A stretch of 64,000 bases of DNA from Escherichia phage Killian, in sequence record OQ446694.1; one strand, 5' to 3'. Made by a program: the position numbers and the translations under genes. The number at the start of each line of letters is the position of its first letter. The stretch's first letter is position 1. Below are positions 30-50,421 of this stretch, one piece after another. The notes beneath the pieces were generated by a model that was not told the origin of the DNA, ran no database searches, and worked only from the letters and a program-made list of their open reading frames with translations.

Positions 30-2978
30 ATGGCTACTTTAAAACAAATACAATTTAAAAGAAGCAAAACTGCAGGTCAACGCCCTGCTGCTTCAGTATT
101 AGCCGAAGGTGAATTGGCTATTAATTTAAAAGATAAAACAATTTTCACAAAAGATGACTCAGGCAGTGTTATAGAATTAGGTTTAAAATATGGAGGAACA
201 ATTGATGGTTCTTTAACTGTTAATGGAAGTATAATTGGAAATTTAACAGGTAACGCTGCAACTGCAACGAAATTGCAAACACCTAGGAAAATTAATGGTA
301 TATCTTTTGATGGGTCAAAGGACATTACCTTAACTCCATCTGACATAAATGTCAATAGCACAACATTTATAAAAAATAACGGCGAATTACCTGTTGACGC
401 TAATTTAGATGAGTATGGGCCTGTTGAAGAATATCTTGGAGTTTGGTCGAAATCTACTTCAACAAATGCGCAACCTGCAAATAAATTCCCAGAAGAAAAT
501 GCCGTAGGTGTATTAGAAGTATTTGTGGCCGGTCAATTTGCTGGTACTCAGAGATATACTGTAAGATCTGGTAACGTATATGTTCGATCTTTGTCTGCTA
601 AATGGAATGGTGTTAATGGTCCGTGGGGTGTGTGGCGTAATGTTCAAGCGTCAACTCGTCCACTTTCACAAACGATTGACCTTGATAGCTTGGGAGAATT
701 AGAACATTGTGGCTTATGGCGAAACAGTTCAAGCGCAATCGCATCATTTGATCGCCATTATCCAGAAGAAGGATCAGCCGCACAAGGATTTTTAGAAATA
801 TTTGAAGGTGGTTTATACACGAGAACGCAGCGTTATACTACCCGCATGGGTATGGTTTATACTCGTTGTCTCGCTGCTGCATGGGATGCTAGTGCACCTA
901 AGTGGGAGGAATGGAAGCAGGTTGGTCATGGCACACCAGCGACTTTCTATGATGGAGATCTGAATGATTTTAAAACTCCTGGGTTATATAATATTTTAGG
1001 CACTGATGCCGTTATTAACTGCCCTACAGGTGAAGGTTTACCAGCCGTTATTGTTGGTTTGCTGGAAGTTAAACAGCGTGCTTCTGGCGGTGCTATTTTC
1101 CAAAAATTTACTACTGCCGGAACAGGTGCAACTACCCGCGATCGTATTTTTGAGCGCGCATATACTGGTGGCGCGTGGGGTGCATGGAACGAAGTATATA
1201 CATCTTATTCTCTGCCAATTACTTTGGGTATGGGTGGCATTAAAGCTCAATTAGCGGAGTTAGATTGGCAAACCTTTGATTTTGTCCCTGGTAGTATGTT
1301 TAGCGTTCCTTTGAACAAAATAAAGAACATGCCAGCAAATATGGATTGGGGGACGATTGACGGAAACTTGGTTATGTTTTCTGTCGGTCCTAGCGAACAT
1401 ACTAGCACAGGGCGTACTGTTCAGGTTTGGCGTGGTACTGTATCCCAGACAAACTACCGTTATTTTGTCGTTCGTGTATTCGGTAATTCAGGAAATAGAA
1501 CTTGCACAGTTCGTCGTGTTGTTCTTGAAGACGGATCACATACTTGGACTGCTCAACAAAACTTTAGGGGATTGCTGAATATCACTGCTGCTGTTAATCT
1601 TGGCGCTAATCAGAAAATTTCACTTGCTCCAGGAGCATATATTCAAGCTCCTGCTAGCGGTTCTGGTTCTAATACTTACGCAAATCAGAATACTACCGTT
1701 GCGCCATTATATCAGGCCATTAACGATTCAAATAAAAACCAGTTTGCGCCAATTGTTAAACAGAAAAACACTGTAACAAATATTACTATGGCTTCTGGTA
1801 TGGATATTGCTAGTTCAGAATATCGTATCGTTGCTCAGGGTGATTTATCCGCTACTGGAACTACAGCCACTGAATTAGCTACATGGCGTTTCTTGCCGTC
1901 TGGCCGATTCATGTCACAAAGTCGAGTTTACGCTGGAGCAGCATTCCTTAATACCGATGGTAATATTTCTGGTTCTATCTGGAAGAAATATAATAATGCA
2001 ACCAATTTAGACGCTGCCTTGAATACTCGCCTAGGTAAAGGCGGTGATACGATGACAGGTCGGTTAACAATCAATGCACCTAATGATTCTATTGTATTAT
2101 CAACAACTGCTAGTAATTCTTTGCATATTCGCGGTGACATAGACGGGACTGGTAACTGGTATATTGGCAAGGGTGGTGCTGATAATTCGCTAGCATTTTA
2201 TAGCTATGCTTCTCAGGCGGCAGTACATATCACAAACAATGGTGAGATTGCGTTAAACCCGCAAAATACCGCAATGGTTAACGTTAACCGTGACCGTGTA
2301 CACATTAACGGTTCTGGATGGATTGCTAGACAACCGGGTGATTGGGGCAACCAATGGCGAGTAGAAGCTCCATTATTCGTTGATCATGGTTATGTTAGTC
2401 AAGATAGTTATTATCCTATTCTTAAAGCAAGAAGCGTTATAACCAATCAAGGATATAGCACCGCTGTTGACTTTGGTATGCGTCGTATTCCATCACAGTG
2501 GGGGCAAGCAATCATTCGTGTCGGATCCACGGAGGCTTCTCCTGATGCTGGACACCCACAAGCTGTGTTTGAATTCCATCATGATGGATTCTTTTATACA
2601 CCAGGAAATGGTAGCTTTAGCGATGTGTATATTCGTTCTGACTCCCGTCTCAAGATTAATAAAGAAGAATTAGAATATGGAGCAGTCGAAAAAGTTTGCC
2701 GACTAAAAGTTTATATTTACGATAAAGTTAAGTCTATTAAAGACCGTAGTGTTATTAAACGTGAAGTTGGTATTATTGCTCAGGACCTTGAAAAGGAATT
2801 ACCGGAAGCTGTATCTAAAGTTGAAGTTGATGGATCTGATGTTCTGACAATTTCTAACTCTGCTGTGAATGCTCTTTTAATTAAGGCCATTCAGGAAATG
2901 AGCGAAGAAATTAAAGAATTGAAAACACCTTTCTTCACTAAAATTGCTCGTAAAATTAGCAATTATTTTAAATTCTAA
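30..2978 (+). CDS. 37: Long tail fiber distal subunit gp37 (982 aa) with C-terminal intramolecular-chaperone-like domain
   Basis: N-terminus [13 protein letters not shown]...[16 protein letters not shown] matches the conserved gp37 N-terminus of T4 as recalled; C-terminal ~110 aa ([20 protein letters not shown]...) resembles auto-cleaving chaperone domains of phage fibers; SD AAGAGGA before ATG at 30; lies directly upstream of gp38 and t. Confidence 0.9.
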
Positions 2979-3011: not shown

Positions 3012-3794
3012 ATGGCAGTAGTTGGTGTTCCTGGTTGGATTGGTAGTTCATCCGTAAATGAAACAGGACAACGATGGATGAGTCAAGCGGCTGGTCAATT
3101 AAGATTGGGTATTCCTTGTTGGATGAGTCAATTTGCAGGTCGCTCAAGAGAAATTATTCACACGCTTGGAGCAGACCATAACTTCAATGGTCAATGGTTC
3201 CGAGATAGATGTTTTGAGGCAGGTAGTGCACCTATAGTGTTTAATATCACTGGAGATTTAGTATCATATTCTAAAGATGTTCCTTTATTCTTTATGTACG
3301 GAGATACACCGAATGAATATGTTCAGTTGAACATACATGGTGTAACGATGTATGGTCGTGGCGGGAATGGCGGTAGCAATAGTCCTGGCTCAGCTGGGGG
3401 TCATTGTATTCAAAATGATATTGGTGGGAGACTAAGAATTAATAATGGCGGAGCTATTGCTGGCGGCGGTGGCGGCGGTGGCGGCGGGTATTATTCTCCT
3501 TTTTCACAAATGAGATTGACCTTTGGCGGTGGCGGCGGTCGTCCGTTTGGCGCACCGGGCGGATCTATTGATATGCAATCAGGAGCAACTGCTGGTACTA
3601 TTTCTGCGCCAGGCGCAGGGTCTGTGAACGGTATCTACAACGGCGGGTCTGGTGGTGAAGTTGGCTCCGCAGGAGGTAGATGTAATATTCGTGGTCAAGG
3701 ATATGAATACGATGGCGGAGCTGCTGGTTATGCCGTCATAGGGTCTACACCGACATGGCAAAACGTTGGAACAATTTACGGACCAAGAGTATAA
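3012..3794 (+). CDS. 38: Tail fiber adhesin gp38, T2-type with glycine-rich motifs
   Basis: [13 protein letters not shown]... N-terminus and repeated polyglycine motifs ([30 protein letters not shown]) are typical of T2-like gp38 adhesins; ATG at 3012 has SD GGAG, whereas the ORF-track start at 2991 is TTG inside the hairpin. Confidence 0.85.
3462..3488. repeat. GGC/GGT trinucleotide repeat encoding the polyglycine tract of gp38
   Basis: ggcggcggt ggcggcggt ggcggcggg read directly; a second shorter GGY run at 3524-3541. Confidence 0.8.
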
Positions 3795-29500: not shown

Positions 29501-30151
29501 TTATTTTTCCTTTCTTATGAAGTTTTCTATCATATGTCTATAGCAGATATTAGGATAACCTGCCTTGACAGCTATTTTATTAAATTTTGTGCGCTTAGGC
29601 CTATTATTATAAACCCATAATTCATAAAGCGCATCATAACTATTCCATATTTCTCCTCGCCTAGGATTTGGTAAACCATATCGAGGTGAATTTTTACCGC
29701 TAAATCTTCCTTTTCGGGCTTTACTCATATTAGCCTTGGCTTCATCGGATATAATTTTACCTTTATGAGCTAGACGCATTTTGGCTTTAGTTTCTTCTGG
29801 GGTCTTTTTGCCTTTAATCCATGACGGCTTGCCATATCTAGGATTATTTTCACCCGAGAAAAGAGCAGAGTTTTGAATTTTAAGGGTTTCTATTAATCTA
29901 CTTGTTAATTTAACACCTTTATTATATCGCATTAAATTTACAGCATAATGCAATCCTCTCACATCTGGATATATTTTAGTTAATAATCTATGAGCTATAA
30001 AATGCTCACGCGCAGTTAACTCAACAAAATTGTTTTTGTCATCTGCTCCTCCCATACATCTAGGAATTATATGATGGCGTTCTTTATATCCACCAAGATG
30101 CCGGCATTTAGCTTTTGTAATTAAAGCCGAGTAAATTTTTTGGTAATTCAC
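29501..30151 (-). mobile_element. Free-standing HNH homing endonuclease gene (216 aa, GTG start)
   Basis: HNH core ERHHIIPRCMGGADDKNNFVELTAREHFIAH plus repeated NPRYGK-type motifs; GTG start with SD AAGGA; stop abuts gene 56 start. Confidence 0.75.
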
Positions 30152-30221
30152 ACATATCCTTTCAATTCATGGATTAGTAGATTAATTATACAATAAATAT
30201 ATAAAGCAATAAGGAGGACAT

Positions 30222-47182: not shown

Positions 47183-48198
47183 TGTGTTGCCTCTACATAT
47201 AACTGATTTGCATATTGAATAAGTGCTTCGCGGTCAGAATCAGTGATGTCTGGAATTGCATTAATGTATTCTTCCATCAATGTCTGAAGAGATTGAACTT
47301 CAACTTCTTCACTATCATCTGACTCAACAGAGTTATCAATCTTTGACACAACTCGTAATGAATGCACAACTTTTTCTAGTTCAGATTCGAACTTCGTCAG
47401 ATTTTTGTCTACCTCAGTTACTATAACACGTACTGATAGATTTGTAAAATCTTTATAGTCAATTTTTCCCTTAAATGGATATTGAATTCGACGATGCCAG
47501 GTAGTGTTGTTTGGAATAAATTCCATTCGTTCTGTTTCTGTATCAAACATCCAGAACCCACGAGGGTCATTCTCGTCACCTGCAGTTAGTGTCCATGGTG
47601 TCCCAATATATCTGACGTTAGCAGCCTCAGAGATAGTATGGAAGTGACCAGACCACACTTCTTTATAAGTCTTAAGGAAATCAGGTTCAAGACCGTGAGA
47701 TTTCATTCCTTTATAAAAATAAAATCCATTCAGTTCCCAGTGACCAACACAAAAAGAAGCAGATGAAGTTTTGATGTGTTCAAGAATTTCACCAGTATTT
47801 TCTTCACACATCCAAGGAATTAAATCAATCAAACATCCGTCAAAATCTACTGTAGTAGGCTTATCATATACTTTAACATTAGGATATTTAGCCAAAAGCT
47901 CAGTAGAAGCATTTGGATGCATTACATTTTTGTAGTGGAGATCGTGATTTCCTACAATAGTATGTAATGTGATTCCAGCGTCATCAAGCATTTGAACTAT
48001 TTCACGGGCAAACTCCATAGTTTTATGCGTGATCGCTTTTCGTACATCAAAAATATCACCGTATTGAATCCATACAGTAATTCCATTTTTCTTAGAATAT
48101 TCTATCGCTTGCTTAATTCCGTCAAGTTGAATACCGCGAATCCATTCATCATCAGCTTTAACGCCTAAATGCCAATCACCCAAGTTTAGTATTTTCAT
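47179..48198 (-). CDS. 47: Recombination nuclease subunit gp47, Mre11/SbcD-like (339 aa)
   Basis: Phosphoesterase motifs DWHLG, GDIFD, GNHD; 339 aa as in T4. Confidence 0.93.
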   Translation of the reverse strand: MKILNLGDWHLGVKADDEWIRGIQLDGIKQAIEYSKKNGITVWIQYGDIFDVRKAITHKTMEFAREIVQMLDDAGITLHTIVGNHDLHYKNVMHPNASTELLAKYPNVKVYDKPTTVDFDGCLIDLIPWMCEENTGEILEHIKTSSASFCVGHWELNGFYFYKGMKSHGLEPDFLKTYKEVWSGHFHTISEAANVRYIGTPWTLTAGDENDPRGFWMFDTETERMEFIPNNTTWHRRIQYPFKGKIDYKDFTNLSVRVIVTEVDKNLTKFESELEKVVHSLRVVSKIDNSVESDDSEEVEVQSLQTLMEEYINAIPDITDSDREALIQYANQLYVEATQ

Positions 48199-48799
48199 GG
48201 TGTCTTTTCCATCCTAATTTAGCTGCTTTTGAAACTAGTTCTTTAATTTTTCCTTTTGTCCATTCAGGACCAGGAGGTTCATGACATAACATTTGCTTAA
48301 CTCCGTTATTATACCATTTTTTACCTTTATTATGTGATGAAGCTTTAAATTTATTTGACCTTCCTTTTACATAACCTTCTGGAATATACGGCAAAAAGGC
48401 AGATTTTCCTGTTAATGGGTCATGTGAATGTATATTTCCTTTACAATTATGAGAACCATATAATGGATGATTTTGTCCTTTAATATCTCTTCCAAATGAA
48501 CCTTTTGGAGCAGCATATGACATATTAAAGAATAATGGATTTTTAACCGCATCATGCAAACGTTGATAATATAGCTCGCATTTAATAGCTTCTTCGCGCG
48601 TATCAAATTCATCTAAAATGCATGAATCAAATAAATGTGGGTTATCTGAAAGTTCTTCATTATAAATTTTCTTATACTTTTTAGATAAAACTGATCCATG
48701 ATATCCGGCTAAATGCCTATCTAAAGATGTAGATCCAATATAAAAAGGAGGAAGTTTATCTCCACTATATATTGTTAAATAAGTTATATATTTTTTCAT
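48176..48799 (-). mobile_element. Free-standing GIY-YIG-like (Seg-type) homing endonuclease gene (207 aa)
   Basis: N-terminal YITYL...FYIGST...EEAIKCE resembles the GIY-YIG catalytic module; NUMOD-like repeats NHPLYGSH and GKKWYNNG; 3-prime end overlaps gene 47 start by 23 nt. Confidence 0.6.
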
Positions 48800-48960
48800 A
48801 TATCAAGAACCGTCATTGAAATGCAAAATAAAATTATTGAAATAAATCCATCTGGAGTGCTAAAGAACCCAATCCAACACGCTCTAGTAAATAGATAAAA
48901 CGCTAGAAAAAGTATCACATATCCAAGAAATATCATTATATCAAACTCCGTATAAAGCTA

Positions 48961-48976
48961 AAGGGCCGAAGCCCTT
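48961..48976 (-). terminator. UUCG-tetraloop hairpin after a-gt
   Basis: aagggccgaagcccttt followed by U-rich tract on the minus strand. Confidence 0.55.
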
Positions 48977-50178
48977 TATTTTGTAATAATGTCAAACTGT
49001 TCTTTAAAACAGAAGCTTGAATCTTGATGCTGATACAAAAATTCATAAGCTTTTTCGCGTTCACGGTCATAAAGAGTTCGGTCAGATGACAGTTCTTTAA
49101 TACGCTCAAATGTTGATTCCATGTCATTTTCATCAAACCAAACGATACCGCTATCATGAGAAATTAACGGAGTATTATCAACACGGAATTTTAAATTTTC
49201 GCCAGTAGATTTCCAAAATACTGGAATTGTTCCACATGCACCAAGCTCGAGATGAGTATATTCTAAAGAACGTTGTAGATATTTTTTATCCAACTTACTC
49301 AGCTGATAACCAAATCCGGATTTACTCATACGTTCAAGCATTTCGCTATTTACATAACGGTCAAGAATTTGCGTCGGCAAATTAGGAGCAATTTTAATTT
49401 GGTCTACTTGATGAAGACGATAATACTCGTATGGAATTCCTTTTTCTTTAATAGGAATGAACGCTGGAGAACGTTCCAGACCTTCCATAATAGTACTTAG
49501 TCCTGCAGGTTTAAGATGTTTTTCATGAAAATCAAACATCTGATAAAAGCCTTTCCATGTAGTAGTACGACCAATCCAACGGTTGATATTCATGTTAATT
49601 TCAGAAACATCTTTCCAGTAGGTTGATCGAACCTTCGCAATATCCATAGGAGGCTGAAAGTTATATACGGTCGGTGCTTCTTCAATATCATCAAACAGAG
49701 AAACTGTTTCTGGATACCATTCTTTCATTAAAACTTTATTAAAATCGCCATTATCAGAATGACTAAAAATAACATCAGCTCGACGAACAGTTTCTTCTAA
49801 TCCCAAATTTCGGCGTAAAGAAAGAGAAGAATGGTCATGCTGATAAACTACAACACGAACCGAAGGTTTAATATTATCAATAATTTTTTTATAGTTATTA
49901 ATTGTGTCTTCTTCTACTGAAGTAGCAGGAACTGAATTGATAATTAGAATATCACAATCATTTACCAGCTTAAGTGTTTTATCGTATTCTTTTGCCAATA
50001 AAACCGGAATTGAAAATGACTTATAATCATGTGCGCAATTACGAGTAAATGATTTATCTTTAGCATAAACCAAAGTTACTTCATGACCATTTTTAATAAA
50101 CCAATCACGTTGCTCAAGAGAAAATTTAGTTACACCACAACCTTCAAGACCTCGAGCCATAAAAATACATACTTTCAT
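48976..50178 (-). CDS. a-gt: Alpha-glucosyltransferase (400 aa)
   Basis: 400 aa, ...CIFMARGLEGCGVTKFSLEQRDWFIKNGHEVTLVYAKDKSF... matches T4 alpha-gt as recalled. Confidence 0.92.
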   Translation of the reverse strand: MKVCIFMARGLEGCGVTKFSLEQRDWFIKNGHEVTLVYAKDKSFTRNCAHDYKSFSIPVLLAKEYDKTLKLVNDCDILIINSVPATSVEEDTINNYKKIIDNIKPSVRVVVYQHDHSSLSLRRNLGLEETVRRADVIFSHSDNGDFNKVLMKEWYPETVSLFDDIEEAPTVYNFQPPMDIAKVRSTYWKDVSEINMNINRWIGRTTTWKGFYQMFDFHEKHLKPAGLSTIMEGLERSPAFIPIKEKGIPYEYYRLHQVDQIKIAPNLPTQILDRYVNSEMLERMSKSGFGYQLSKLDKKYLQRSLEYTHLELGACGTIPVFWKSTGENLKFRVDNTPLISHDSGIVWFDENDMESTFERIKELSSDRTLYDREREKAYEFLYQHQDSSFCFKEQFDIITK

Positions 50179-50229
50179 TTAATATCCTCATTGTTTTGGT
50201 TTATTTTACCAAAAATTTATAAAGCAATA

Positions 50230-50247
50230 TAGGAGCCGAAGCTCCTA
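50230..50247 (-). other. UUCG-tetraloop RNA hairpin upstream of a-gt
   Basis: taggagccgaagctccta. Confidence 0.45.
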
Positions 50248-50421
50248 TCCGCATAATACGCCATACAGAGGCTCATTAGAGCTTCTAAATTTTATACACT
50301 TATATGTTATAGTTCCTTCTGCTTTAGCTTTATCATGAGACTCTTTAAAACGTCTCATCATTTCTACTTTAGAGGAACGAATTTTATTATAATCTATTTC
50401 AGAAGTCTGGGTGTTCATCTT

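Follow-up and report, generated by a model that had tools for sequence, protein, structure and literature searches.

The closest described counterpart of the gene considered here is segE of phage T4 (112070-112687 of the T4 record, annotated as segE), whose product has reportedly been shown by experiment to be active (Kadyrov et al. 1997). We analysed an open reading frame (ORF) that lies directly upstream of gene 47 in Escherichia phage Killian, within a window of 64,000 nucleotides (the whole stretch of DNA under study; sequence record OQ446694.1), the coordinates of which are used throughout. The Killian protein and SegE are of similar size (207 and 205 amino acids (aa), respectively), are homologous over their whole length, are both encoded by free-standing genes between other genes, and share the Seg signature YIG..S....GY.GS together with two C-terminal W-x-N-N-G ... 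P-[ED]-G-[FWY]-x-K-G repeats. However, the relation is a distant one, and the Killian protein differs in having a NUMOD3-like half-motif after the nuclease domain and in the overlap of the 3' end of its gene with the downstream gene. Because the insertion site, between 47.1 and gene 47, is not that of segE, the target is presumably different as well.

Other known systems resemble this locus in part. The nuclease domain has a profile match to SegG, and a one-sided block of ~300 bp of linked variation in gene 47 resembles the co-conversion between cleavage site and Seg gene of SegG and SegF; here, however, co-conversion is deduced from natural variation rather than from crosses, and SegF itself has no detectable sequence similarity to the Killian protein. 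Papers on SegG and SegF, dealing with intronless homing, marker exclusion and co-conversion, are cited in PMC2993671. I-TevI is intron-encoded in T4 td, whereas the Killian gene is not in an intron; Pfam finds neither a zinc finger nor a helix-turn-helix in the Killian protein, and nuclease-domain similarity is undetectable by hhalign against the single I-TevI sequence. A paralogue in Klebsiella phage Mexia (1998..2690 of locus L053) has a nuclease domain ~53% identical to that of the Killian protein and is likewise encoded directly upstream of an essential DNA-metabolism gene, topoisomerase II gene 39, with a short 3' overlap (14 nt), but its C-terminus carries Pfam NUMOD3 repeats and it occupies another locus. 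The pair would fit a swap of DNA-binding modules that retargeted the same nuclease.

In the T4 table of homing endonuclease genes (HEGs) of Edgell et al. 2010 (PMC2988022), mobB stands at alpha-gt/alpha-gt.2 and none stands at 47.1/47 among the entries shown, which run to segC; Petrov et al. 2010 (PMC2993671) counted seg-like genes per genome, and the 47.1/47 site is not among them. The Killian gene is an uncharacterised SegE relative of an ordinary mobile-gene kind, at a site not described in the papers searched. Our favoured interpretation, which we hold to be probable, is that it is an active, free-standing SegE-like HEG whose target lies where 47.1 meets gene 47 or in the 5' end of the latter, and which spreads with co-conversion. 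The analysis establishes its fold, its relationship to SegE, a clean insertion that is patchily distributed, conserved synteny with gene 47, purifying selection and a linked gene 47 haplotype.

A SegE-like GIY-YIG endonuclease

The 207-aa ORF singled out in an earlier note on this DNA is returned at the same position, 48176-48799, by the ORF listing of the window, with an ATG start. It is a genuine gene and not a chance reading frame: it has 169 homologues in a large protein database (E values down to 1e-137; ~28 of them with similarity along the entire length), it matches PHROG 10820 (E 7.6e-94), and the ratio of nonsynonymous to synonymous substitution (dN/dS) among eight intact copies is 0.08 (mean dS 0.073, dN 0.006), so that the intact copies are under purifying selection. 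Many other homologues match only the N-terminal ~115 residues and have Pfam NUMOD3 in the C-terminus.

The same note had recognized a GIY-YIG-like N-terminal module, and the modelled fold, the catalytic residues and the homology to SegE all bear this out. Y7 (in ITY) stands in place of the GIY motif, Y20-I21-G22 form the YIG motif, and R28, E75 and N92 occupy the other expected catalytic positions, a mapping onto I-TevI residues based on the literature and on where Pfam aligns residues 4-84. In an alignment of 44 homologous sequences, from which conservation was read, Y33, G35, S39, L56, F57, A71, E75, N92 and G142 are invariant, and Y7, Y20-I21-G22 and R68 are at least 90% conserved. The structure model predicts a GIY-YIG alpha/beta fold, with a three-stranded sheet and flanking helices, and its best structural matches are GIY-YIG enzymes; the matches in BFVD are GIY-YIG, NUMOD and Seg-like endonucleases. 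For direct comparison with T4 endonucleases, 150 kb of T4 was used. The family profile aligned with T4 SegE over 173 columns (hhalign 97.3%, E 2e-11); its alignment with SegG (95.5%) takes in the latter half of the nuclease domain. The GIY-YIG/Seg relationship is thus detected by profile search; BLASTP gave 28% identity to T4 SegE over 198 aa. A hidden Markov model (HMM) of the N-terminal domain (hmmsearch) matched SegE, SegG, SegB, SegD and SegA among the T4 proteins, and had no match to MobB, MobC or SegF. On these grounds of homology the protein is a SegE-like GIY-YIG endonuclease.

The NUMOD-like repeats reported in the earlier note are present only in part. A half NUMOD3-like motif, GQNHPLYG, does precede the C-terminal repeats, but Pfam NUMOD3 (PF07460) has no match in the whole protein at E <= 1 or in the C-terminal 105 aa at E <= 10, and the true repeats are two of SegE type, the first LPYIPEGYVKGR and the second KKWYNNGVKQMLCHEPPGPEWTKGK (KKWYNNG..PPGPEWTKGK). 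Pfam NUMOD3 is present in 20 of the 44 relatives. With I-TevI only residues 104-126 align, weakly, to the NUMOD3-like linker (hhalign, 21% probability), and the model predicts beta-hairpins at 123-136 and 161-172. The C-terminal region with the two SegE-type repeats presumably binds DNA.

Insertion at gene 47 and linked variation

Relative to T4 and T6, the gene is an insertion of 601 bp between an intact 47.1 and an intact gene 47, without an intron or intein. The start of gene 47 is thereby displaced by 601 bp and now lies inside the 3' end of the endonuclease gene. Because ATGAAAA occurs at both edges of the insertion, the boundary is ambiguous by 7 bp. The stop codon of 47.1 overlaps the endonuclease ATG as ATGA; in T4 the same ATGA joins the 47.1 stop to the gene 47 ATG. 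The overlap of the ORF with the first 23 nt of the Mre11-like gene 47, also reported earlier, holds at 48176-48198, where codons 1-8 of gene 47 encode in another frame the last endonuclease residues, HENTKLG. The endonuclease TGA stop is inside GGTGAT, the Gly7-Asp8 codons of gp47, with which begins a GDWH segment that we take to be Mre11 motif I; these Gly-Asp codons are conserved in every gene 47 sequence compared. The product of gene 47 in the window is 98.5% identical to T4 gp47. Since 47.1, annotated in T4 as a predicted membrane protein, is present between alpha-gt and the ORF, the ORF sits between 47.1 and 47: of the earlier placement between gene 47 and alpha-gt, the gene 47 side stands and the alpha-gt side does not. 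Similarly, the earlier statement that T4 has only a tiny ORF here is right in that the endonuclease ORF is absent from T4, but the tiny ORF, 47.1, is retained in the window too.

A megablast search with positions 47900-49200 (1301 nt) as query returned 534 records of Tequatrovirus-type phages, 68 of which, about one in eight, cover the endonuclease ORF. The HEG-less records, including T4, T6, RB3, RB14 and RB32, match in the flanks only, 700 bp in two pieces. Across T-even genomes, the same ORF is thus far from universal at this junction, but the lineage-specific insertion suggested in the note is not what is found: the element is patchy within Tequatrovirus, and homologues occupy the same position in seven named genera. 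Some copies are defective. In ZCEC15 a run of A at nt 478 is one base too long, which shifts the frame and truncates the protein, and ESh16 probably has the same frameshift, judging from a two-piece tblastn match only. Internal deletions in KNP1 (KX452694.1) and KNP5 (NC_055713.1) were considered and rejected, as runs of N inside the endonuclease gene, an assembly gap, mimic them in BLAST.

Gene 47 directly follows every full-length homologue examined, but the upstream neighbours differ (47.1, an a-gt.2-like ORF and others, mostly without alpha-gt there); outside Tequatrovirus these homologues are 49-81% identical to the Killian protein. Among IMG/VR loci with a gp47 relative, only 2 of 28 have the element. 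Both HEG-carrying (HEG+) and HEG-less states occur in Dhakavirus-like and Gelderlandvirus loci, and in these two genera the element takes the place of a 47.1-like ORF, homology to HEG-less relatives resuming exactly at the gene 47 ATG. As the full-length homologues are at gene 47 and the NUMOD3 paralogue is at gene 39, the C-terminal region goes with the gene 47 location, an association that would be expected if this region is the target-recognition module.

Linkage to gene 47 was examined in an alignment of ~7 kb from 9 HEG+ and 12 HEG-less Tequatrovirus loci. Four synonymous substitutions in codons 3-6 of gene 47 (window positions 48190, 48189, 48184 and 48181) are the only fixed differences over the ~7 kb between the 9 HEG+ loci and 11 HEG-less loci, with Ec_YwIITB1 set aside; they are present in 9/9 HEG+ and 1/12 HEG-less loci (Fisher p = 3e-5). 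Divergence between the T4-type and T6-type alleles of gene 47 is 10%, 4% and 19% in its first, second and third 100 bp and 1-3% thereafter, and the T4-type block is present in 9/9 HEG+ and 5/12 HEG-less loci (Fisher p = 0.007). This dimorphism of the gene 47 5' region holds across Tequatrovirus with or without the endonuclease gene (loci L001, L002, L008-L011, L029 and L045-L048), and about half of all database records have identities of 80-90%. In a comparison over 431 nt, the HEG+ records listed, a spread sample of the 68 in which a few exceptions could be missed, were all at least 96.8% identical to the window, and 256 HEG-less records were in the 80-90% band. The linkage is one-sided, as polymorphisms upstream of the insertion are shuffled in HEG+ and HEG-less loci alike. 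The possibility that the four silent changes are required by the endonuclease frame was rejected, because the T4-type sequence in that frame reaches the same TGA and the tail is modelled as disordered (residues 196-207, pLDDT <50).

The same one-sidedness was found in other genera. Between Dhakavirus QL01 and four HEG-less Dhakavirus-like loci, divergence is 23-26%, 12-16% and 13% in the first, second and third 100 bp of gene 47 and mostly 3-9% further on; the silent differences of QL01 from its relatives are at +9, +10, +12, +15 and +18, and +19 to +42 are identical. Between Gelderlandvirus SEA1 and two HEG-less Gelderlandvirus-like loci, divergence is 7-35% over the first 300 bp and mostly 0-5% after that. 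Mosigvirus AV114, without a close HEG-less relative among the loci used, was outside this divergence test.

Sites that are empty and nevertheless bear the four linked substitutions were sought with an 82-nt query carrying the HEG-linked gene 47 variant, which gave single-piece matches of 97.6-100%, compared with 95.1% for T4-type sites. They are present in ~8 phages (BCPEco_001, BCPSen_003, Ec_YwIITB1, SHFML-26, PBM-1, UGKSEcP1, UGKSEcP2 and EPIMAM01), and would have arisen either by precise loss of the element across the ATGAAAA repeat or as resistant alleles through recombination. Ec_YwIITB1 has a T4-type block. As a separate observation, the HEG-less phage RB14 (630..650 of locus L050) has one of the four linked changes (+10 C: ATGAAAATTCTAAATTTAGG), an intermediate allele.

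Proposed target and mode of spread, and alternative explanations

We infer the following scheme, including cleavage, its exact target, the mechanism of immunity and translational coupling. The endonuclease gene would share a transcript with 47.1 and 47, started from a middle-promoter-like element located upstream of all three; a terminator and a middle promoter are annotated there in phage SA20RB. Translation of the endonuclease would probably be coupled to that of 47.1, because its gene took over the ATGA start/stop overlap of gene 47. When HEG+ and HEG-less phages infect the same cell, the enzyme would cleave the HEG-less genomes, either at the 47.1/47 junction or close to it, or else somewhere in the first ~300 bp of gene 47; recombination-dependent repair of the break would carry over the 601-bp element and, with it, the neighbouring 5' part of gene 47. 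HEG+ genomes might escape their own enzyme in that the insertion splits the cleavage site, in that the four silent changes in codons 3-6 of gene 47 protect the site, or in that the linked gene 47 allele is resistant. Presence and absence of the element, the linked haplotype, the frameshifted copies and the footprinted empty sites fit the gain-decay-loss cycle of an active HEG. The earlier note had named gene 47 or alpha-gt as the place of the target; synteny and the linked haplotype point to gene 47. Alpha-gt was rejected as the target, as 47.1, the terminator and the promoter-like element intervene, and it is unlikely because most genera with the element have no alpha-gt adjoining it.

Several observations weigh against this interpretation. 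At the protein level, Pfam GIY-YIG (PF01541) matches residues 4-84 below its gathering score (20.1 versus 22.6 bits, E 8e-4); position 28, the equivalent of I-TevI Arg27, is R or K in most of the homologues shown and not strictly R; and searches of PDB sequences, whether started from the protein or from the 44-sequence profile, returned nothing relevant, nor did NCBIfam return anything. With Pfam GIY-YIG matches at E <= 0.01 in 15 of the 44 members, the family is best described as a divergent subfamily of the GIY-YIG superfamily. As for expression, several T4 HEGs are regulated by late promoters or by hairpins that sequester the ribosome-binding site. No T4 late promoter (TATAAATA) lies near the endonuclease gene, with only 3 in the whole window, and no hairpin sequestering the ribosome-binding site was found around the endonuclease or gene 47 start codons, where RNA folds are no more stable than those of shuffles (z 0.36 and 0.62). 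With regard to the haplotype, the HEG-less Gelderlandvirus locus L024 shares the first 75 nt of gene 47 with HEG+ SEA1, so that immunity does not follow from silent changes in codons 3-6 as a general rule. The linkage could also reflect shared ancestry of a young HEG+ clade and not repeated co-conversion, the sampled genomes being non-independent. Finally, a literature search found no paper on the protein or on a HEG at 47.1/47.

The most serious competing explanation, although we consider it rather unlikely, places the cut well inside gene 47 (~+57 to +290), with a geometry like that of SegG. T6-type genomes would then be sensitive and T4-type genomes, including T4 itself, resistant, and the four changes would be hitch-hiking donor markers. 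The linked block to ~+300 does coincide with the T4-type/T6-type dimorphism (10-19% in the first and third windows and 4% in the middle one, against 1-3% beyond), none of the HEG+ genomes compared carried a T6-type block, and the same 300-bp block of excess divergence recurs in two other genera. Set against this, fixed differences between HEG+ and HEG-less loci are confined to the four substitutions at +9 to +18, and parallel silent changes occur in codons 3-6 in Dhakavirus, which argues for something functional near the junction. EPIMAM01, moreover, combines the four changes with a T6-type block in the absence of the element, so that the four changes and the block can separate.

It is also conceivable, but improbable, that the Seg-like protein has been domesticated, is no longer mobile and benefits the phage, either by cutting competitors in co-infection or by driving gene 47 translation through the 23-nt overlap, with ordinary recombination and deletion accounting for the patchiness. 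Strong purifying selection is in keeping with such a role, as is the 3' overlap with gene 47, which is kept in five of the seven named genera and in SmallBear. In addition, identities of the protein and of gp47 are roughly parallel across genera (81/73, 69/70, 71/70, 61/71, 59/67 and 49/50 %); the divergence of the endonuclease thus tracks that of gp47, which fits long residence and not recent jumps. However, domestication does not readily explain clean presence and absence among phages that are ~95% identical, the linked haplotype, the frameshifted copies or the footprinted empty sites, and most Tequatrovirus phages lack the element and have gene 47 expressed from the 47.1 overlap. Least credible of all is an inactive relic or a protein outside the GIY-YIG group, such as an HNH endonuclease. 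PHROG 10820 and many RefSeq records carry the label 'HNH endonuclease', and the Pfam GIY-YIG match is under threshold, but Pfam HNH has no match to the protein, the best structural matches of the model are GIY-YIG enzymes, and homology to SegE, conserved catalytic residues and the low dN/dS all speak for a functional member of the Seg group. That label is an annotation error. Database labels are inconsistent in any case (hypothetical, 'HNH endonuclease' and, in GenBank, putative (SegE) homing endonuclease), and the family label should change to GIY-YIG, SegE-like endonuclease.

Features of the locus and implications

The coordinates of the features are collected in Table 1.

Table 1. Features in the window around the endonuclease gene, and homologues upstream of gene 47 in other phages.
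Feature	Position	Strand	Basis or remark
SegE-like GIY-YIG homing endonuclease gene, free-standing	48176..48799	-	ORF, PHROG 10820, hhalign to SegE, dN/dS
GIY-YIG nuclease domain, residues 1-100	48500..48799	-	Y7, Y20-I21-G22 (YIG), R28, E75, N92
Presumed DNA-binding region, residues 104-195	48215..48490	-	hhalign to SegE covers both repeats; binding inferred
C-terminal tail, residues 196-207 and stop codon	48176..48214	-	sequence; pLDDT <50
Insertion relative to T4 and T6, 601 bp	48199..48799	-	alignment; HEG-less records match in two pieces
Left copy of 7-bp direct repeat ATGAAAA (endonuclease gene start)	48793..48799	-	
Right copy of 7-bp direct repeat ATGAAAA (gene 47 start)	48192..48198	-	
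Gene 47 (Mre11/SbcD-like recombination nuclease subunit), presumed target gene, 339 aa	47179..48198	-	Pfam Metallophos
Four synonymous substitutions, gene 47 codons 3-6	48181..48190	-	+9 T>A, +10 T>C, +15 T>C, +18 A>G
Dimorphic T4-type/T6-type block, first ~300 bp of gene 47	47899..48198	-	only T4-type seen with the element
Gene 47.1, 46 aa	48796..48936	-	phrog_6693, E 1.5e-31
Terminator hairpin of alpha-gt (48959-48978), then middle-promoter-like GCTT-N14-TATAAT (48958-48935)	48935..48978	-	pattern match
alpha-gt	48976..50178	-	Pfam AGT, E 6e-236
Homologue, Gelderlandvirus SEA1	upstream of gene 47		23-nt overlap
Homologue, unclassified Klebsiella phage SmallBear	upstream of gene 47		17 nt overlap
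Homologue, Winklervirus LC53	upstream of gene 47		121-nt gap
Homologues, Dhakavirus QL01 and IME540	upstream of gene 47		14 nt in QL01
Homologue, Marfavirus EI	upstream of gene 47		17 nt
Homologue, Biquartavirus avDM2	upstream of gene 47		23 nt
Homologue, Mosigvirus AV114	upstream of gene 47		1 nt
Homologue, IMG/VR contig L031	upstream of gene 47		

With respect to expression signals, the -10-like TATAAT (48935..48940) overlaps the 47.1 ATG (48934..48936) as TATAATG, so that a transcript from the middle-promoter-like element would begin inside 47.1; sigma-70-like matches are no commoner than in shuffled sequence. At the other end of the endonuclease gene, several genera (window 48199..48225; loci L004, L005, L035 and L036) have TGG-RAA as the coding sequence for the C-terminal W-[KE]-R of the family; it lies 10-14 nt before the gene 47 ATG and could double as a weak Shine-Dalgarno element for gene 47.

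In T4 the HNH homing endonuclease gene mobB is just upstream of alpha-gt; in the window a 57-aa ORF (50245..50418), presumably the equivalent of T4 a-gt.2 by size and position, directly follows alpha-gt, and mobB is therefore absent (window 50179..50245 compared with 3237..3700 of the T4 locus), as it is from T6 and the HEG+ phages examined. The window holds a second putative homing endonuclease gene at 29504..30166 on the minus strand (221 aa; Pfam NUMOD3, E 3.5e-7, and weak HNH, E 0.02), which resembles a Mob-type HNH endonuclease and has only the G-x-N-x-P-x-Y-G motif in common with the SegE-like ORF. In ZCEC15 and RB32 yet another endonuclease gene, read from the opposite strand, occupies the space between 45.2 and gene 46 and adjoins the 3' end of the latter (439..1155, plus strand, in both loci); it is annotated in RB32 as 'similar to mobB' and is absent from the window relatives NBG2 and ECO4.

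The 47.1/47 junction constitutes an eighth Seg-type site in the T-even repertoire, and its interest lies in a link to gene 47 that is kept in seven named genera. Natural alleles are on hand in the form of naive T4-type, naive T6-type, occupied, frameshifted and empty sites, the last with the linked silent changes; T4 and T6 are natural recipients, and the HEG+ phage AndreasVesalius (locus tags bas42_) is part of the BASEL collection.

Beyond this, we tentatively propose, as a possibility somewhat short of an even chance, that the endonuclease gene is joined with the 5'-most ~100 codons of gene 47 in a single cassette that travels across T4-like phages and drives repeated allelic replacement of the catalytic N-terminus of gp47 (Mre11 motifs I-III). 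Because the endonuclease stop codon is in the conserved Gly-Asp codons of motif I, the host could not mutate the overlap away. If true, this would account for the sharp T4-type/T6-type dimorphism, a localized hypervariable block in an essential recombination gene, and the part replaced would belong to the very nuclease thought to process the element's own double-strand breaks. Nuclease genes have been described as marking the boundaries of genetic exchange between phages (PMC10448857), and such a cassette would be another case of nuclease genes at these boundaries.

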